From positions 256,001 through 320,000 of the forward strand of contig JALSOH010000004.1 of assembly GCA_026986575.1 (NCBI GenBank): DNA of 64,000 bases, written 5' to 3'. Shown here in pieces: positions 9,849 through 36,029 of the stretch; within the stretch, counting starts at the first letter, position 1, and each line of letters begins with the position of its first letter. The notes beneath the pieces are model-generated. The model was given only the letters and a program-made list of their open reading frames with translations, was not told the DNA's origin and ran no database searches. The position numbers and the translations under genes are program-made. The stretch is from Thermoproteota archaeon. Its GTDB lineage: Archaea > Korarchaeota > Korarchaeia > Korarchaeales > Korarchaeaceae.

Positions 9849-10845
9849 ATGCTTATTAGCGTTGGATGGTCTTACCCTAGGATGGACGAGTCCGAAAGGT
9901 TGGAGGGGCTGCCTCCTTGGGCCATAGATACGCTAAAAACACTCGCACTCAGCAAGTCTCTTAAGGAGGGAACTACCAGACGAGTGGAGACATGTGAAAG
10001 TGAGACTGAGACGAGGAGAAATCCGCGATAAACTCCTCACCAGAGAGGAAGCTCATTGAGGCAGCTCCCTCAGCGAAGGCTAAGGCCCTAGTTGCGGCTG
10101 TCTATGATGGAGCTCTGAGGATTTCCGAAGCTATCTCGTTAAGGGTGAAGGATTTAGTGCCCTTTCATCATGATGGCGCCGTTGTGGGTTATATCACTTC
10201 AGCTAGGGGGGAAATGTGGGAGAGAACAATTCTGTTTGTCGACTCCTATCCTTATTTGAGGGAGTGGTTGTTAGTGCATCCCCTACCAGACCCAGATATG
10301 CCCCTCTTTCCCTCTTCCCTTAACATCTATAGACCTATGAGTAGACGAACCGCAGAGGACTTGTTTAAAACCATTAGAAGGAGAGCGGGATCAGAACATG
10401 TGACATGGCATTGGTTGAGGCATACACGACTCACTGAGCTAGCTTCGAAGCTTATAGAGAGCGAATTGAGACTCGTTGTGGGCTAACACCTAACTCGAAG
10501 ATGGTGGAGACCTACTTGCACCTCTCAGGGCGAGATGCCGTCTCAGCGATGGCAAGGAAGGTTTACGGCCTCGAACCAGAGGGTGAGGAACCAATCACAT
10601 CATCCATAGCTCCCAGAGTCTGCCTCGTATGTGGGTATACGAATCCTACAACAGGGAGGCTTTGCCTTCAGTGTGGCGCTGGGCTGGTCCTGAGTGAAGA
10701 GGAGAAAGTAGAAGTTGTAAAAAGGGAGCTGCTCGTGGATAGTATCATGTCCGCCGTAATGAGCGATGAGGAGGCTGCATCACTATTGAGAAAGGCCGTA
10801 GAGATAGCAGTGAAGCGAGGGCTTATCACATTGAGATTAAACTGA
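9849..10845 (+). pseudogene. Tyrosine recombinase/integrase with C-terminal zinc ribbon, frameshifted
   Basis: LLTREE / KLIEAAP...YDGALRISEAISLRVKD (box I), HWLRH (box II), TPNSKMVETY catalytic Tyr, CLVC..CLQC; split over frames near 10050 and 10485. Confidence 0.9.
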
Positions 10846-12075: not shown

Positions 12076-13143
12076 ATGGCGGAGGGTACGAGTGTGAAGA
12101 TAGCCATTGACAAGATCGTCGTTAACCCGGATCTCATAGCTAGGTCGAGTTTAAACGACGAGTACCTTGAAATGCTTGCAAAAAGTCTTGATGAGGATGG
12201 TCTCCTCCATCCGATAACAGTCAGACCACTAAGTGACGGTAGGTATGAGCTAATTGATGGTCTTCATAGGCTAAGTGCGGCAAAAAGGCTTGGTTGGAAG
12301 GATATAGAGGCTAATGTAATCGATGCAGATGACCTAGAGGCGAGGTTTCTCTCCCTCAAGGCGAATCTCGTGAGGAGAAGCTTAGAACCTGTTGAGGAGG
12401 GAGAGGTAGTCTATAGGATAATGGTCAAGCATGGTCTTACTGAGAAGGAGGTAGCAAAGAGGCTGGGGGTCACTACCAAGTGGGTATCTGAGAGGTTGGC
12501 CTTGGTGCTCAAGGTTCCAGAGGAAGTCAAGAAGATGGTTGCTGAAGGTAAGCTCGGTTTAGGACACGCGGTTGTTATCTCCAAGATAGAGGAAAAGGAG
12601 AAGCAGTTAAAGTTCGCCAGACTAATAGTTAGAGAGGGCTGGTCAGTCAAAGAAGCAGAGAGAATGCTACCAGAGTTCTTAAACGACACGATCTACACTA
12701 TAGGCTACGATGGGAGAACTTTCGAGGAGCTACTCTCCATCCTCAAAGAGAACGGCATAGTCATGGTGCTCGATGTGAGACACGATGTGGAGTTCGTCAA
12801 ACCGGAATTTTCGATAGAGGTTCTTAAGAGACAGCTTCCAGCCAATGGGATAAAGTATGTGCACGTTAAGGAGCTCGGAGTCCCCAAACTAATTAGGGAG
12901 CCGTATGTAAAGGGTAAAATGTCCTATGAATGCTTCAGACAATGGTATGAGTGGTGGTTAGAGGAAAACTCCGAAATCCTCGAAAGGGCTTTGAGAGAGG
13001 CAAAATCCACTGGTCCAACAGCTTTACTCTGTCAAGAGAGATATCCTACTCCGAAGAAGGGTCAGAAGCACTACTGCCATAGACATATACTCGCTGAGGT
13101 CGCCTTGGAGTTAGGTATATTTGAAAAAAGACTCGATTTATGA
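12076..13143 (+). CDS. ParB/Srx domain + HTH + DUF488 fusion protein
   Basis: GLLHPITVR...LIDGLHRLSAA, ANLVRRSL, HTH; from about 12685 TIYTIGY, LDVR, ELG, LLCQE...YCHRH (DUF488). Confidence 0.85.
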   Translation: MAEGTSVKIAIDKIVVNPDLIARSSLNDEYLEMLAKSLDEDGLLHPITVRPLSDGRYELIDGLHRLSAAKRLGWKDIEANVIDADDLEARFLSLKANLVRRSLEPVEEGEVVYRIMVKHGLTEKEVAKRLGVTTKWVSERLALVLKVPEEVKKMVAEGKLGLGHAVVISKIEEKEKQLKFARLIVREGWSVKEAERMLPEFLNDTIYTIGYDGRTFEELLSILKENGIVMVLDVRHDVEFVKPEFSIEVLKRQLPANGIKYVHVKELGVPKLIREPYVKGKMSYECFRQWYEWWLEENSEILERALREAKSTGPTALLCQERYPTPKKGQKHYCHRHILAEVALELGIFEKRLDL

Positions 13144-29673: not shown

Positions 29674-30315
29674 ATGGCGGGGACGAGGATAAAGTTCGTC
29701 ATAGAGGAGGTGGACGGTAGGTACGTGGGAATAGGAGTCGGCGGAAGGGAGCTCTACTGCAATACGATCCCCCTTCCCTCCAAAGAGGAGGCGGAGGCCG
29801 ACCTGAGAGCTACCTGCTACTCAGCTTGGGGAGATTCATTGGATCTAATGCCTGAATACCACATACCCTCGGCCTACAGATTGGCCCTCCTGATAAGTAA
29901 GCTATTCTCCGGAGAGAGCGTAGATCTCTCCGGGATCAGACTGGCCCGCCATCCCCGGGAGAAATTTTGGAACGCCATTCTGCTGATGAGCTCCATCCCG
30001 AGGGGCATGGTAACAACTTACGGGGAGCTTGCGAGGGCTTTGGGCACATCACCGAGGGCCGCCGGAAACTACGCCTCTCGAAACCCGTTTCCACTCATAG
30101 TCCCCTGCCACAGGGTGATAAGGAGCGACATGAGGATAGGAGGCTACAGCTACGGCCCTATACTGAAAGCGTCACTGTTAATTGCTGAAGGTGTGAAGGT
30201 GGACTTCGACACCGGCAAGGTAGATCCCTCAAGGGTAATCAGATCCGAGGAATTACTGTCCCTTAAGGAGGTGCGGGGAATTGTCAGTTACCACCAAACC
30301 CATCTTCGCATCTGA
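29674..30315 (+). CDS. ogt: Methylated-DNA--protein-cysteine methyltransferase
   Basis: IPRG..TYGELA, NPFPLIVPCHRV. Confidence 0.93.
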   Translation: MAGTRIKFVIEEVDGRYVGIGVGGRELYCNTIPLPSKEEAEADLRATCYSAWGDSLDLMPEYHIPSAYRLALLISKLFSGESVDLSGIRLARHPREKFWNAILLMSSIPRGMVTTYGELARALGTSPRAAGNYASRNPFPLIVPCHRVIRSDMRIGGYSYGPILKASLLIAEGVKVDFDTGKVDPSRVIRSEELLSLKEVRGIVSYHQTHLRI

Positions 30316-31564
30316 CTTCGGTACCTCATACTACAAGTTCGGGCCTTGGTGGCTCATGAAGACCGGGCCCGACATGGTGGAGAACAGGGGGTACTTTCCC
30401 AGAATATCGAAGCTCTCTGCCGAGGTCAGGGGCATTAAATCGAGGGAGGTAGTTGTAGGTAATGAGGTAACAGAGTACTTGGAATCTAAGGCTGACCTAT
30501 CTAGGCTCTACTACCCCATGAGAAACGGCATAGTGGAGAGGGGAGATGAGAGGGGTTGGAAGGTAATAAAGGAGCTCGTGAGATACGGGCTTCTCAAATA
30601 CCACCCTGGGAGAACGGACTCTACCGGAGTTCCCTTCCACGGTTTCTTCGTAGTCGCATCGCTAGCTGCACAAGCACCGACATACATGTACGAGAGGCTG
30701 TTTGAGATTCACAAGGAGGTGAACGCCGAGGAAGGAGGTGGCCTTGTAAGGGCGGTTACCATAATACCGCAGCCGTTAGCGGTTGCCATAGCGGAGAAGG
30801 CGGTGACGTGTGTTGTGGTTGAGGCAGGGCACGGAAACACCCAGATAACGCCCATAAGCAGGGACGTGATTAAGGCTGCCTTGATCCCCCTCAACAGGGG
30901 AGGAAGCGATTCGGACAGGATCGCAGCTCAGATCCTGAAGGATCTCGGTTACTCCGACTTAGCTAGGGAGGAGAAATTCGTCCGCATATTCAAGGAATCC
31001 GTTGGTCTCCTCCCCTTAGACGTGGATAAAGCCATATCTTGGGCTAAGGATCATCCTAGCGCGCTACAATCAGTCTTCCGCATTCCCGGTACTACAGTGG
31101 AGGTGGACATGGGAGATAAGGCGTGGCAGAGGTTCCTCATAGGCGAGTTCTTCTTCAATCCCGGACACGAGATCTTCGAGAGCTACTACTCTAGGGGCTT
31201 CACACCACCCAAGGACACTCTCGTGGGAGGTGAAGTGATCCCAGGGGACGTGAGTCTGGCTGAAGCTATAAGGGAAGCCATTTCTAAGACCCCAGTGGAG
31301 CTTCAGTCGTCCATAGTGAGGCACATTATCCTATCGGGAGGGGCCTTCAACTGGCAAGTCCCCAAAGGGTTGGAGGGAATAGCCACGGACTCGCCGACCA
31401 AGCTTAAGGTGATGATGAAATCCGTGGGGCTGGAAACCGATCCCAAGATGGTCTCGGATCCCCAGTTCAGCGTGTGGAGAGGGGCCATAGTCTACGGATT
31501 GGCGGTCGGGGAAGGAATTAAGTGGGACTGGGGAAAGATGGAGGGCTGGTTCTATGTGGAATGA
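30281..31564 (+). CDS. Crenactin (archaeal actin)
   Basis: DFGTSYYKFGP, PQPLAVAIAE, EAGHGN, ILKDLGYSDLAREE, RFLIGE, ILSGGAF, PQFSVWRGA. Confidence 0.92.
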   Translation: MSVTTKPIFASDFGTSYYKFGPWWLMKTGPDMVENRGYFPRISKLSAEVRGIKSREVVVGNEVTEYLESKADLSRLYYPMRNGIVERGDERGWKVIKELVRYGLLKYHPGRTDSTGVPFHGFFVVASLAAQAPTYMYERLFEIHKEVNAEEGGGLVRAVTIIPQPLAVAIAEKAVTCVVVEAGHGNTQITPISRDVIKAALIPLNRGGSDSDRIAAQILKDLGYSDLAREEKFVRIFKESVGLLPLDVDKAISWAKDHPSALQSVFRIPGTTVEVDMGDKAWQRFLIGEFFFNPGHEIFESYYSRGFTPPKDTLVGGEVIPGDVSLAEAIREAISKTPVELQSSIVRHIILSGGAFNWQVPKGLEGIATDSPTKLKVMMKSVGLETDPKMVSDPQFSVWRGAIVYGLAVGEGIKWDWGKMEGWFYVE

Positions 31565-32295
31565 ACCATCTCTTGGAATTGAATGGCGTTTTCGAAGCTG
31601 AAATAGGAGTTATTGAACAGCACGTAGTTCTCCCTCAAGGACCACCCCTCCACAATCTCTCTAAGCCTTTCTAACTCTTCCTTCCCGTACTTGTGGGAAT
31701 ATATGATTTTCTTCCCCTCCCTCCTACCATGCAACCTGTAGTATCGGATCTTACCATAAACGGGAGCTTCGTACATGGGATCCACAACGTGAGAGATCCC
31801 TAGGTCCTCCAGAAGGTCCCTGAACTTCGGGCTCTTGAGCCAACCAGCCTCTCTGACCTCCCATGCCAGTAGAAAGCCCCCCGAGATGGTGGAGAAGAAC
31901 TCTCGCGCGTTGGCGAGATTGACCTCGTTGAATTCGAAGGAGGGCGGGCTTTGAAAAACTACAACACTTGCTCCTAGCTCCTTCACCGGAACTTCGAATT
32001 CCTCCCACAGGTTGAAGTTCTCCTTGGTGGGCTTGAGCGACCCATAGGAGTCATCCTTGGGAAGGCCTGTCTTACCCCATATCCTGCTTCTGGGATTATG
32101 GGTGAATGCCATCCAGGCCTTTACAGTGAACTCGAAGTCTTTAGGAGCCTCCTCACGCCACCTCCTCAAGGTTTCAATCTTAGGCGGTTTGTAAAATGTC
32201 TTCTGAACCTCTACCAACCTGAGTTTCTCATAATATCTCTTCCTAGAGACCTGAAATCCGCAGCAACCCACCTTCACGGTAGCAGATATCCCCAT
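31552..32295 (-). CDS. DUF72 family protein
   Basis: VGCCGF, VEVQKTFY, FTVKA, FQSPPSF, YYRLHG, YVLFNN. Confidence 0.9.
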   Translation of the reverse strand: MGISATVKVGCCGFQVSRKRYYEKLRLVEVQKTFYKPPKIETLRRWREEAPKDFEFTVKAWMAFTHNPRSRIWGKTGLPKDDSYGSLKPTKENFNLWEEFEVPVKELGASVVVFQSPPSFEFNEVNLANAREFFSTISGGFLLAWEVREAGWLKSPKFRDLLEDLGISHVVDPMYEAPVYGKIRYYRLHGRREGKKIIYSHKYGKEELERLREIVEGWSLRENYVLFNNSYFSFENAIQFQEMVHST

Positions 32296-33359
32296 TTCTC
32301 CACCATCGCCTCCACATCCTTATCCCTCCTGATTACTGATAAGAGGTTTTCACCTCTCATGAAGGAATCCAGCACCTCTCTTATGGATCTTACTCCAGCT
32401 ATGATCCCTCTGGGGTGATCGTATATTCCTAGATCCCCATTGAGGATCACCTGCAGGTCCTCAGGAATATTGGCGATGGCTATCCCTTGGTGGACTTGGG
32501 GGGAAGTTAACGGCATCGCAGCGCCCTTCCCGCTTCCAATGACCTCATCTAGCTCCCTAACGATCTCCAGATCCTCCCTCCTCCATGCCACGGATCTCTC
32601 GATCAGATCAAAGCCGCTAGCTCTCAAGAGCTTGTAAGTGGCTTTAATTCCCAATCCTACCTCTCTAATGAAGCAGTTCACGCCCCTCGCTGCCAAGAAT
32701 ATGTTGTCCATGAACTCGATCGCGAGCCTGAGCATCCCCAGATCCCAGCACAGATGGACGTAAAACCCCTTTATCCCCAAGGAGATGGCGCGCTCTAGAT
32801 CTTCTGAGGATAAGGGGAGTCTCATGAAGTACAGTACTCGCTTACCTTCCTCCTCTTTTATCCTATCAGTGATTTCGACTATCTGATGAGCCCTATCTAG
32901 GTAAGGAGAAACCTCTCTATCAGTTAAATTGAGGGGATCGAAGCCTACGTGGAGGCCGGCCTTGCACATCTCCCTAAATAATCTTGCATGCGAGAGGGGA
33001 TGCAAGACAACGTTTTTTCCCACCGAGGCCGCTACACCCGGACCTCTAAGCCCTAAGTACTTCTTCAATCCAGATTTGCCCGGGGTGGGAGACCTCACCC
33101 TGTCGAGAGGGAATTCAACCCCCTTCACCTCACAGATCGGGGGAAAATGCTCCAGCAGCGACTCTACAGCATAGTATACGGATGTGAGTAGGAGATCCCC
33201 TCCCACCAGTTCCTCAGGAAGATCGACAGTGTATCGGTACTTTCCTATCTCATCCAATTCAATCTTCGCCTCTACCTCCTCTTCTAAGTCTGCCGGTAAG
33301 GATGCCTTCCCCAAAGGCTTTTTACACTCTAGTTCCAAGATCAAGACCTTTTCACCCAC
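32274..33359 (-). CDS. Divergent RuBisCO large-chain homolog lacking catalytic residues
   Basis: Collinear with form III RuBisCO (GIYDHPRGIIAG, EKWG tail) but KDDE is FDPL. Confidence 0.75.
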   Translation of the reverse strand: MGEKVLILELECKKPLGKASLPADLEEEVEAKIELDEIGKYRYTVDLPEELVGGDLLLTSVYYAVESLLEHFPPICEVKGVEFPLDRVRSPTPGKSGLKKYLGLRGPGVAASVGKNVVLHPLSHARLFREMCKAGLHVGFDPLNLTDREVSPYLDRAHQIVEITDRIKEEEGKRVLYFMRLPLSSEDLERAISLGIKGFYVHLCWDLGMLRLAIEFMDNIFLAARGVNCFIREVGLGIKATYKLLRASGFDLIERSVAWRREDLEIVRELDEVIGSGKGAAMPLTSPQVHQGIAIANIPEDLQVILNGDLGIYDHPRGIIAGVRSIREVLDSFMRGENLLSVIRRDKDVEAMVEKWGYLLP

Positions 33360-33411
33360 ATCTGGTCGTCACCCGGGGTTCTCTTAAATGATTCCGGTGT
33401 GAGTATGTCCG

Positions 33412-34647
33412 ATGCCAGAAGAAGTGGAAATACCTAAGGGTGAAGGGGTATTAGTGAGGTCACCAGCATCTATTAAACTCCTAAGCGGCAATATTGAGGT
33501 CTGGGGCGCCGAGTTCAATGAGATAGCAGTTCAGATGGACGGTGTTGAGCTACTAGTCACATCTTCCACTGACTCGAAAGTGGTTGTAGATGGGCACTAC
33601 GTGAAGTTGGAGAGCCCCATTCCGGACTGGTGGAGGGAGCTTCCTGAAATTGTGATGGACAAGAAGACCATGTTTATAGGCAGAGTTGACTCGGGCAAGA
33701 GCTCCACAATAGTTTTTACGATCAACAAGATAGTGAGAGGGGGTAGCACGGTCTCCATCATCGATTCAGACGTTGGCCAGTCAGATCTGGGACCGCCCGG
33801 GGTGATTTCCAGCAAGGATGTGGAAAAACCAGTAGCCCACACCAAGTTACTGGAACCGGACTTCATGTACTTCATCGGCGACAAAACACCAAGTGGCCAC
33901 TTCCTTCCAATGGTGAAGGGGCTCCTCAATGCCTTAGATAGGTCCAGGAGCAGGACCGTCCTGATAAACACAACGGGCTTCGTGGATGGAGGAGCGGCTA
34001 GGGCTCTGAAGAGGTTCAAAGTAGAGTTCTTGGATCCGGATATCTTGGTACTGATAGAGAAGGAAGAGGGAGACTTGGATCACATAGCTAAGATGGTTCC
34101 TAGGGATGTAAAGGTCCTGAAAGTCAGATCTCCCGTGAGAGATCTGACCAAAAGTAGGAATTACAGGATCGCTGTCAGGAGGGCCCTCCTGAGGAGGTAC
34201 CTATCTGGCGCCACTACGAGAAAGCTCGACCTCCGAGGAATCGAGCTGACGAACACGTTCCTAACGACAGGCAGGGCGAAAGACGAGTACATCCCATTCT
34301 TAGAGCGTATCTTGGGGGTGAGAGTGCGGTGGATGGAGGAGTCTCCCGACATGCTCATAGCGATCACGGAAGGCGAGGTCGACAGGAGGAAAATCGCAAC
34401 GCTCTCAGATCTCCTGAACAAAGAGGTGAGGGTGGGCCCAATGGATGTGTACAAGGGGCTCTACGTGGGTCTCATTCAAGGGAGAGAATGCAAGAGTGTC
34501 GGCATAATACAATCGATGGACATTAAGGAGGGTTGGATGAACATCTTAACCAAGTACGAGGGACCGGTAGATGGAATCGCACTGGGATACATCAGGTTTA
34601 ATGCTGAGGGCGAGGAACTCGGCTCAAGGGGGATGAACCTTCCATGA
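33412..34647 (+). CDS. Clp1/Grc3-family polynucleotide 5'-kinase
   Basis: GRVDSGKS, DSDVGQSDLGPPG, INTTGFV. Confidence 0.9.
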   Translation: MPEEVEIPKGEGVLVRSPASIKLLSGNIEVWGAEFNEIAVQMDGVELLVTSSTDSKVVVDGHYVKLESPIPDWWRELPEIVMDKKTMFIGRVDSGKSSTIVFTINKIVRGGSTVSIIDSDVGQSDLGPPGVISSKDVEKPVAHTKLLEPDFMYFIGDKTPSGHFLPMVKGLLNALDRSRSRTVLINTTGFVDGGAARALKRFKVEFLDPDILVLIEKEEGDLDHIAKMVPRDVKVLKVRSPVRDLTKSRNYRIAVRRALLRRYLSGATTRKLDLRGIELTNTFLTTGRAKDEYIPFLERILGVRVRWMEESPDMLIAITEGEVDRRKIATLSDLLNKEVRVGPMDVYKGLYVGLIQGRECKSVGIIQSMDIKEGWMNILTKYEGPVDGIALGYIRFNAEGEELGSRGMNLP

Positions 34648-36029
34648 GCTCCTCCTACATAAAAAATCTGGATGAGCTTGTTGACAACGGAGCGACTAGG
34701 AGGGACAAGGACGCCAGAAGGGCCCTGCTACTGGCCTTCGATAAGGCGATCACGGCTGCCGACGCTTATAAAGCGGTATTCTCCAGATTCTCGGATCAGG
34801 AGATAATATTCGGTACTTCATCCGTCGATATAGGATCCTTTGAAGGCGTTTACGTGGTGGGAGCAGGAAAAGCTGGAAGCATGATGGCTAAAGCCGTGGA
34901 GGACAGGATAGGGGATCGCATATCGTCCGGTTGGGTCAATGTCCCCGCTAAGACCGAGAAAGCCGTTTCCCTCTCGAAGATCATGTTGAATCCAGCCGGT
35001 CACCCAATCCCCGATGAGGGTAGCCTGAAAGGGGCTAAAGAGATCTTAGATACAGCTAAAAGGGCGGGAGAAAGGGACCTAATCCTCTCCCTGATATCGG
35101 GCGGTGGCTCTGCTCTAATGGAATACCCCATGGAGGGTATCTCTTTGAACGACCTACGAGAGATGAACAGGTTGCTCGTACTTTCAGGGGCGGATATCAG
35201 GGAGATAAACGCCGTCAGGAAGCACGTATCTCAGATAAAGGGTGGTAGGCTCGCCAAGGCCGCCTATCCGGCTACTGTCGTATCGTTGATAATATCCGAC
35301 GTCATAGGAGATCCCTTAGATGTTATAGCCTCCGGCCCAACTGCACCCGATGAGACGACTTTCGAGGACGCTTGGCAGGTGCTTGAAAACTATTCACTCA
35401 TCGATAAAATGCCGGAGTCCGTGATAAAAGTGCTGAAGCGCGGGTTAAAGGGTGAGATACCGGAGACCCCTAAGCCGGGCGACGAGGTATTCGATAGGGT
35501 CATGAACGTTATAGTGGCCAATAATCTGAAGGCCGTCCAGGCAGCTGAGAGGGCGCTGGTTGAGATGGGCTATAACGTGCTAGTGCTCGGCTCTAGGGCA
35601 CAAGGGGAGGCCAGACACATAGGTAAGTTTCTGGCAGGCCTTGCAGTCTCCATAGCGAAGGAGGGGCTGCCTCTCACCCCGCCTGCAGCCGTCATCTTGG
35701 GTGGAGAGACCACTGTGAAGGTGACTGGGCAGGGAATTGGAGGTAGGAATCAAGAACTGGTTTTAGGAGGGATCCCAACGATATCAGGTCTCGAGGGGGT
35801 CGTGCTGGGATCTGTGGGGACTGATGGAGTAGACGGAGTGTCTGACGCAGCGGGAGCGATAGCTGACGGCCGGACTTTGGAAAGAGCTCTCTCAGAAGGA
35901 CTGAGACCGGAGGTTTTCCTGAAAAATAACGACTCTCACACGTTCTTCTCGTGGCTCGGTGATGCTATCTTCACTGGTCCCACTATGACCAATGTGATGG
36001 ATGTTATGGGCTTGGTGGTTCAAGAGTGA
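34644..36029 (+). CDS. Glycerate 2-kinase (MOFRL family)
   Basis: GAGKAG, ISGGGSAL, IASGPT, GGRNQE, GTDGVDG. Confidence 0.93.
   Translation: MSSSYIKNLDELVDNGATRRDKDARRALLLAFDKAITAADAYKAVFSRFSDQEIIFGTSSVDIGSFEGVYVVGAGKAGSMMAKAVEDRIGDRISSGWVNVPAKTEKAVSLSKIMLNPAGHPIPDEGSLKGAKEILDTAKRAGERDLILSLISGGGSALMEYPMEGISLNDLREMNRLLVLSGADIREINAVRKHVSQIKGGRLAKAAYPATVVSLIISDVIGDPLDVIASGPTAPDETTFEDAWQVLENYSLIDKMPESVIKVLKRGLKGEIPETPKPGDEVFDRVMNVIVANNLKAVQAAERALVEMGYNVLVLGSRAQGEARHIGKFLAGLAVSIAKEGLPLTPPAAVILGGETTVKVTGQGIGGRNQELVLGGIPTISGLEGVVLGSVGTDGVDGVSDAAGAIADGRTLERALSEGLRPEVFLKNNDSHTFFSWLGDAIFTGPTMTNVMDVMGLVVQE

Follow-up and report, generated by a model that had tools for sequence, protein, structure and literature searches.

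The window analysed here is a stretch of 64,000 nucleotides (nt) from a Thermoproteota archaeon of the Korarchaeaceae (assembly GCA_026986575.1, contig JALSOH010000004.1, positions 256,001 to 320,000 of the forward strand). On its minus strand, at 32274..33359, lies an intact open reading frame (ORF) of 361 codons that opens with GTG and encodes a RuBisCO-like protein (RLP), as an earlier reading of the sequence (the original prediction) had proposed. We state with high confidence that this protein has the RuBisCO fold without the chemistry of RuBisCO or of RLPs, that the gene is old, conserved in position and under selection, and that it is an accessory gene which ancestrally lay beside the gene for an isomerase and has been orphaned here. 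At its 3' end it overlaps the start of a DUF72 triosephosphate isomerase (TIM)-barrel gene on the same strand (31552..32295, minus), by 22 nt if DUF72 starts at the ATG at 32295 and by 4 nt (GTGA) if it starts at the GTG at 32277. At its 5' end it is divergent from a Clp1-type P-loop kinase gene (33412..34647, plus), whose stop overlaps by 4 nt a gene of the glycerate 2-kinase family (34644..36029, plus). Both of these arrangements had been predicted and were borne out.

Ten database homologs of the RLP begin 5 codons downstream of the GTG that opens the ORF in the window, most of them with a methionine. The corresponding codon in the window is a TTG at 33344, with GGTGA some 8-9 nt and a TTTAAGA element some 37 nt ahead of it. 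Because the homologs start at this position, the real product probably consists of 356 amino acids (aa) from TTG 33344.

The RuBisCO fold of the predicted protein

The protein barely exceeded the Pfam threshold for RuBisCO_large (PF00016; 31.4 bits, cut-off 30.1). When it was used to query the PDB with phmmer, the top matches were form III RuBisCOs (8dht, 4.5e-13; 6hun; 3kdo/1geh) and the MtnW enolase (2oej, 3.2e-10), and a profile of the wider clade to which it belongs scored 157 bits on 6hun. Profile comparison by hhalign gave a probability of 99.3 over 321 columns against an alignment of 12 RuBisCO sequences bearing the K-D-E motif, five of them the form III genes of the window's own phylum that lie above the TIGR03326 cut-off.

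An AlphaFold2 model was built from an alignment of the 10-sequence family and had a mean predicted local distance difference test score (pLDDT) of 72.6 and a predicted template modelling score (pTM) of 0.79. The top Foldseek matches of this model were all RuBisCO or RLP structures (probability 1.0, TM 0.66-0.69). VIA-align superposed it on the P. horikoshii RuBisCO with a Z score of 23.8 and a root mean square deviation of 4.0 Å over 324 aligned residues; both domains are evidently present in the model because this alignment spans its residues 2-357. Over all comparisons, which reach across residues 1-361, 324-331 of the 361 residues were aligned in both domains, and since Z scores of 22-24 were obtained for forms I-IV alike, the structure assigns no form. 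The architecture seen in the model is that of a shortened N-terminal alpha/beta domain followed by a C-terminal TIM barrel. By sequence and by predicted structure, the protein is a homolog of the RuBisCO large subunit with the two-domain PF00016/PF02788 fold, and the homology that had been claimed for it is confirmed.

Canonical catalytic and substrate-binding residues

Substitutions at the canonical positions, given here in spinach RuBisCO numbering, were read in four alignment methods (HMMER pairwise, MAFFT, hhalign, and hmmalign to a form III profile), all of which agree on the core. The stretch K201-D202-D203-E204 is replaced by F140-D141-P142-L143 (32931..32942, minus), with K201 falling on F140, D203 on P142 and E204 on L143 in all four methods, so that neither the carbamyl-lysine nor either metal ligand remains. 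Among the ten members of the family, G139, D141 and P142 are invariant and F140 is a leucine in one. K177 corresponds to N116 or V117, and H294 to A224 or V227, depending on the alignment. The position of H327 is held by E254 (32598..32600, minus), which is followed by a shortened loop 6 in which the position of K334 falls on W259 or in a gap. S379-G380-G381 appears as S286-P287-Q288 (32496..32504, minus), with the serine retained and both glycines replaced, and G403-G404-G405 as D309-L310-G311 (32427..32435, minus); here the glycines that bind the P1 phosphate are lost (G403 to D309, G404 to L310), and the replacement is invariant in the family. The N-terminal domain is about 45 aa shorter than in RuBisCO, the segment with E60, T65 and W66 being absent or unalignable, and the N123 position is occupied by a residue other than asparagine (about L68).

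What remains is an HPxG sequence, an xxAG motif and a form III-like C-terminal tail, EKWGYLLP (32277..32300, minus), which lies within the most conserved part of the protein. In all, between one (hhalign) and three (hmmalign) of 19 canonical sites survive, and the same losses were found in all 17 clade sequences for which the motif was alignable. The losses listed in the original prediction (K201F, D203P, E204L, K177, H294, H327E, K334, and SGG to SPQ) were thus reproduced by the four methods, as were the retained HPxGxxAG and EKWG segments and the short N-terminal domain. Its further claim that K175 and R295 are retained depended on the method. HMMER places K175 on K115, while MAFFT and hhalign place it on G114 (in MAFFT, K115 then falls on P176), and K115 is a leucine in three of the ten family members. 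R295 corresponds to R225 by HMMER and MAFFT and to a gap by hhalign.

The residues that mark bona fide RuBisCOs of forms I-III, namely K201/D203/E204, K177/H294/H327/K334 and the phosphate sites, are therefore missing, and the score against the form III equivalog TIGR03326 was 50.9 bits (cut-off 497.45). The protein is a form IV RLP in the broad sense of a RuBisCO homolog without the residues needed for carboxylation. It also fell far below the cut-offs of the equivalogs for characterised RLPs (PRK09549, 41.8 against 409 bits; TIGR03332, 30.4 against 513.6; OiaX, 36.3 against 700). The characterised RLPs known to us use the Mg-carbamate enolisation chemistry. With neither the carbamyl-lysine/Mg2+ site nor the acid-base residues, loop 6 or either phosphate site left, the protein in the window, judging from its sequence, can neither carboxylate ribulose-1,5-bisphosphate (RuBP) nor run that chemistry. 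The suggestion that it might be a sugar-phosphate sensor is likewise weakened, because P287/Q288 and D309/L310 replace both glycine pairs and H327 and K334 are gone.

Archaeal form III RuBisCOs (P. horikoshii 2d69/2cwx; T. kodakarensis 1geh/3kdo; 8dht; 6hun) provide the best matches in both sequence and structure, and share with the protein the two-domain fold, a GPxxG linker, the HPxG motif and the EKWG tail. The protein differs from them at 16-18 of the 19 catalytic and substrate-binding residues, in its shortened loop 6 and N-terminal domain, and in branching apart from the form III genes resident in its phylum. The form IV MtnW/YkrW enolase, which acts on 2,3-diketo-5-methylthiopentyl-1-phosphate (DK-MTP-1-P; 2oej, 2zvi), and the OiaX decarboxylase are similar to it in having a RuBisCO fold without carboxylase residues, and the sequence scores to MtnW are comparable (2oej, 3.2e-10; PRK09549, 41.8 bits). 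MtnW-type sequences such as P0034, P0055 and P0062, however, keep K201-D203-E204 where the protein in the window has F-P-L; this protein lies under every MtnW and OiaX equivalog cut-off, and the MtnW-type sequences fall into a different group of the tree. The Chlorobium tepidum RLP (IV-Photo; 1ykw, 1tel), together with 3nwr and 2qyg, combines the RuBisCO fold with non-carboxylase roles (Z 22.4-23.2) and shows marginal sequence similarity to our protein (E about 0.003); these proteins presumably keep the lysine and the acidic ligands. The passages of Jaffe et al. 2019 (PMC6389311) that describe "form IV-like" RLPs of phage and Beckwithbacteria report proteins that are likewise short and divergent and lack several conserved residues. 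Unlike these, the clade described here is archaeal, chromosomal, conserved in position and linked to an isomerase gene, and no specific relationship between the two emerged.

The clade, its gene neighbourhood and selection

The closest relatives outside the family were P0012-P0017 and P0024 (334-422 aa), which lack GxDxxKxDE and carry GxDxGxDP-like sequences in its place. A profile of the clade was used to search 43 species genomes of the window's phylum in the GTDB. Matches were found in 28, of which 22 contained a member of the clade (286-505 bits) and six contained other RuBisCO-type genes alone (164 bits or less). Ten of the clade members came from the 21 genomes of the window's genus and 12 more from outside it. 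A quick, unrooted IQ-TREE phylogeny was built of 83 rows; it excludes a truncated gene, eight loci that are near-duplicates, every hit past P0089 and any protein shorter than 340 or longer than 520 aa. In it the clade's 20 rows formed one group with 100% support in the Shimodaira-Hasegawa-like approximate likelihood ratio test (SH-aLRT). This group was separate both from a form III-type group, which contains the form III genes of the phylum itself, and from an RLP/MtnW-type group. Constraining the clade to join the resident form III genes cost 65.8 log-likelihood units (approximately unbiased test, p=0.0035), for a grouping that was chosen after viewing the tree and that involves long branches. 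As far as this tree goes, the clade did not arise by recent duplication of the resident form III gene. A placement among forms III and IV, which the original prediction had suggested as a check, was achieved in part: the clade is monophyletic and apart from the form III and MtnW-type groups of this tree.

The least degenerate member of the clade, P0013 (422 aa), keeps nine of the 19 canonical sites, including K175, K177, E60, T65 and W66. Members from other genera (364-406 aa) and from the window's genus (333-361 aa) each keep one to three. A metagenome scan with P0013 returned 487 pattern matches and no confirmed ones. The ESM Atlas yielded generic RuBisCO-family clusters only, and its look-alike clusters of 333-368 aa include viral ones. 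A full-text literature search that covered passages of PMC6389311, PMC13454268, PMC12787533, PMC10667645, PMC5575542 and PMC11791011, with supplementary RuBisCO trees outside its scope, returned no description of the clade, and in the main-text passages of two papers on a related archaeal lineage the only RuBisCO named is form III-b, together with genes of the adenosine monophosphate (AMP) pathway. The clade thus appears to be previously uncharacterised, and it is best filed, by its residues, as a form IV-type RLP without the K-D-E motif.

The loss of metal ligands was also surveyed in a wider set, the 118 nearest relatives among 1.84 billion cluster representatives, of which 102 are non-members of the clade whose sequence spans the motif. 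K-D-E is kept in 71 of these, both acids are kept in 85, and both acids are lost in three. The premise that nearly all RLPs retain the metal-binding acids was therefore roughly right for the nearest relatives, although other degenerate homologs do exist; the protein in the window stands at the extreme of residue loss without being unique in sequence space. Five metagenomic RuBisCO homologs outside the clade (P0036, P0038, P0060, and also P0074 and P0090) have between one and nine of the 19 canonical sites left, and in the first three both acidic ligands are lost. The named RLP clades may understate how widespread degenerate proteins of the RuBisCO fold are.

The position of the gene was compared across the phylum. 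In the window's genus, RtcA is followed by an MGMT-like gene and crenactin, then by DUF72 and RLP on the other strand and by the divergent Clp1-like kinase and glycerate 2-kinase genes. In all ten RLP-bearing genomes of the genus, including the most divergent, whose RLP has 333 aa, the stop of RLP and the start of DUF72 overlap. In other genera of the family the RLP gene occupies the same position by Clp1, and the divergent Clp1-RLP pairing was present at every family-f1 locus that has an RLP, with a gene of 333-345 aa on the opposite strand between RLP and DUF72. This intervening gene belongs to the IF-2B family and matches the TIGR00511 equivalog for ribose-1,5-bisphosphate isomerase at 420-434 bits (cut-off 314). 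Since it lies between the two genes in other genera, a coupling of RLP to DUF72 as the ancestral arrangement was rejected. All 12 clade members outside the genus abut, tail to tail, the only above-cut-off isomerase of their genome (420-443 bits), with the 3' ends ranging from a 6 nt overlap to about 100 nt apart, and these 12 genomes also hold a form III RuBisCO and an AMP phosphorylase above cut-off. One of the 12 belongs to a different family, and there the RLP/isomerase pair is kept among different neighbours; the clade would accordingly be at least as old as the common ancestor of two families of the phylum. At this locus (L079:7752-10596; genome G007, contig C6) the neighbours are a metallophosphoesterase, an amidohydrolase, a carbamoyltransferase-like gene and an ABC transporter, and two AMP phosphorylase genes lie 35-50 kb from the pair on the same contig. 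The region may be one of nucleoside utilisation.

Across the phylum, above-cut-off form III RuBisCO was found in 17, AMP phosphorylase in 18 and the isomerase in 16 of the 43 genomes, and none of the three was found in any of the 21 genomes of the window's genus. The IF-2B homolog of this genus is of the MtnA type (TIGR00512, 381 bits). The window genome itself, which is 99.7% complete, yielded no form III RuBisCO, AMP phosphorylase, above-cut-off isomerase or PRK. Looking for an active RuBisCO and AMP-pathway genes had been proposed as a check, and it came out negative for both the genome and the genus. What the original prediction missed is this context: the RLP in the window is an orphaned member of a clade that adjoins ribose-1,5-bisphosphate isomerase in related genera.

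Selection on the gene was estimated from pairwise Nei-Gojobori ratios of non-synonymous to synonymous substitution (dN/dS), using the nucleotide sequences of seven orthologs, which come from metagenome-assembled genomes with the titles Thermoproteota archaeon or Crenarchaeota archaeon. Whole-gene values for the unsaturated pairs (dS<1) were 0.14, 0.10, 0.095 and 0.115. These were close to the values for DUF72 (0.07-0.12) and Clp1 (0.10-0.17), while glycerate kinase and crenactin were lower (0.01-0.07). By region, dN/dS was 0.13-0.31 in the N-terminal domain, 0.05-0.12 in the barrel and 0.06-0.10 in the C-terminal part, and in other genera it was 0.05-0.22 for RLP against 0.03-0.07 for the adjacent isomerase. 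Within the genus-level family, 94 of the 361 positions are invariant at identities down to 47%, with only 4/90 in the N-terminal domain and 34/81 in the last part. The reading frame was intact in all 22 clade genes found. These data (dN/dS 0.09-0.14 at dS<1, like DUF72 and Clp1) support the view that the gene is maintained by purifying selection and is not decaying, in agreement with the original prediction.

A decayed gene is available for comparison in the same genome. The only other RuBisCO-family sequence there is a pseudogene fragment of 78 aa that contains an in-frame TAG and lies outside the window on the minus strand of contig C11 (C11:3672-3902; L001:1501-1731). It is 71% identical to residues 229-306 of another RuBisCO-family paralog, which one genome of the genus has in intact form with 412 aa, for which reason we rejected the idea that it is a relic of a true form III RuBisCO. 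The intact paralog (L065:1369-2607, minus) keeps KDDE, HR, H327 and SGG; because K177 and the GGG/HPxG region are missing, it is an RLP type of its own. The fragment shows how a dead RuBisCO-family gene looks in the window genome, in contrast to the RLP.

Several further features surround the RLP gene. The divergent intergenic region between RLP and Clp1 (33345..33411) contains one AT-rich, TATA-like element (TTTAAGA / TCTTAAA), and with the two starts only 52-67 bp apart this lone element could serve as the TATA box of both genes. The Clp1/glycerate 2-kinase pair, in which an RNA-kinase-like gene adjoins a carbon-metabolism kinase, is conserved in at least three other genera of the family, and downstream of it lie a TRAM-like ORF of 102 aa and a TrmB-family regulator. 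On the other side, the crenactin gene (30281-31564; 625.8 bits against an NCBIfam cut-off of 630) converges on DUF72 (31552-32295) with a 13 nt overlap of the 3' ends, and its 5' end overlaps an MGMT-like gene (29674-30315) by 35 nt, so that the genes around RLP are packed very tightly. Farther away, between 10100 and 20700, the window has a low guanine plus cytosine content of 0.45-0.47, against 0.51-0.55 in the flanks. This stretch opens with a short ORF of the phage integrase family (10145-10486) and further holds a ParB_N/HTH_ParB/DUF488 fusion (12076-13143), an AAA/T2SSE-like fragment and many small ORFs without a Pfam match. It is probably an integrated element or the remnant of one.

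Possible functions of the protein

The reading that we favour, with a probability of about 0.5 for the statement as a whole, is that this is a non-carboxylating RuBisCO-fold protein that acts without catalysis and that began as an accessory to pentose-bisphosphate metabolism. The catalytic site would have been lost while the whole two-domain fold was kept, and the original role would have been accessory to that metabolism. In the window's genus the whole pathway would then have disappeared, with the RLP surviving in about half of the species, shortened and translationally coupled to DUF72; its present role there would be independent of the pathway, and the protein may serve for binding or as a scaffold, built on the RuBisCO fold. 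Like its relatives, it probably forms a homodimer. A non-catalytic role is favoured because the clade conserves no new polar constellation at the strand ends, where only D141 (equivalent to D202, which is conserved throughout the superfamily) and R255 are near-invariant, and because the N-terminal domain is truncated and least constrained, although it completes the active site in all family members known to us.

A number of observations weigh against this reading. The AlphaFold2 model is weak at residues 18-31 and 276-300, and the span 270-300 (pLDDT 43-51) includes strand 7. The sequencing runs that contain the locus comprise five of DNA type, from three studies, and none of RNA. The RLP/isomerase pair is convergent and not co-transcribed, and its adjacency is only moderate evidence of a functional link because this lineage generally conserves its gene order. 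At nine of nine loci examined in RLP-less genomes of the genus, Clp1 stands next to DUF72 and a six-frame profile search found no trace of RLP. In two genomes of another genus the genes run Clp1-isomerase-DUF72, the RLP having gone without trace, and both genomes keep the isomerase, form III RuBisCO and AMP phosphorylase. Since the gene has been cleanly deleted at least twice, once where the pathway persists, it is dispensable both for the pathway and for DUF72 and is an accessory gene. The genus-level family also has ten invariant polar residues at the predicted barrel mouth (D141, C204, D206, R225, C229, E254, R255, H290, D309 and Y313), and the position of G403 is acidic in most of the clade (DE or DL).

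These last two observations suggest that the protein might still be an enzyme, in which new mouth residues (for example D141, D206, E254, R255, D309, C204 and H290) catalyse another reaction on another substrate. TIM barrels often change chemistry, and the barrel here is under strong purifying selection (dN/dS 0.05-0.12). We nevertheless consider a rebuilt enzyme unlikely. Apart from D141 and R255, the mouth residues are not kept in the wider clade of positional orthologs; no significant enrichment of invariant positions was seen at the mouth (17/48 against 77/313 elsewhere, p=0.12, for the genus-level family on the predicted model); and the N-terminal domain is truncated and the least conserved part. 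An alternative is that the RLP is a partner of DUF72, a TIM barrel related to UV-damage endonuclease according to a passage of PMC11791011, with the two proteins made in fixed proportion from overlapping genes and acting as a complex. The stop/start overlap in every RLP-bearing genome of the genus would fit such a partnership, yet we find it improbable, as the coupling is recent, the opposite-strand isomerase gene separating the two in other genera, and as 20 of the 21 genomes of the genus carry DUF72 regardless of RLP.

The original prediction had raised a hetero-oligomeric or regulatory subunit; the partner considered here is an active RuBisCO or ribose-1,5-bisphosphate isomerase. RuBisCO-family proteins dimerise and share active sites between subunits, and in 12 related genomes the gene of the clade is found alongside a form III RuBisCO and directly beside the isomerase gene. 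In the window genome, however, a hetero-oligomer with an active RuBisCO is excluded because the whole pathway is absent, and the idea found no support in this genome. Both proposed partners are missing from the genus as a whole, where the RLP is still selected, and two genomes have the pathway without the RLP; the subunit reading is on these grounds quite improbable overall, although it may hold for the relatives. That the gene is a relic without function, slowly decaying, is very improbable. It has been lost repeatedly, its non-synonymous evolution is 3-4 times faster than that of the adjacent isomerase, and both its length (from 422 to 364-406 to 333-361 aa) and its canonical sites (from 9/19 to 1-3/19) have dwindled. 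Against this stand the intact frames of 22 of 22 clade genes, a dN/dS of about 0.1 in every unsaturated pair, the 94 invariant positions, and a truly dead paralog in the same genome that has been reduced to a fragment.

If the non-catalytic, accessory reading holds, it is tempting to go further. We put forward tentatively, as a possibility that may well prove wrong, that the clade is the first family of true "pseudo-RuBisCOs", an old, empty paralog kept beside the isomerase as a non-enzymatic accessory for binding, sequestering or regulating, and then exapted in one genus after the loss of the pathway. The four states found in this phylum (pathway with RLP, pathway without RLP, RLP without pathway, and neither) make up a natural test case. 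Metabolic reconstructions of these archaea can also mistake genes of this kind for RuBisCO, since such genes score just over the Pfam threshold. RuBisCO-like proteins have been used to reason about the origin of RuBisCO chemistry, and to our knowledge every characterised RLP still uses the lysine-carbamate/Mg2+ site. A clade that has kept the fold across at least two families after the complete loss of that site, adjoining an enzyme that makes RuBP, would show that selection can act on the RuBisCO scaffold for purposes other than enolate chemistry.

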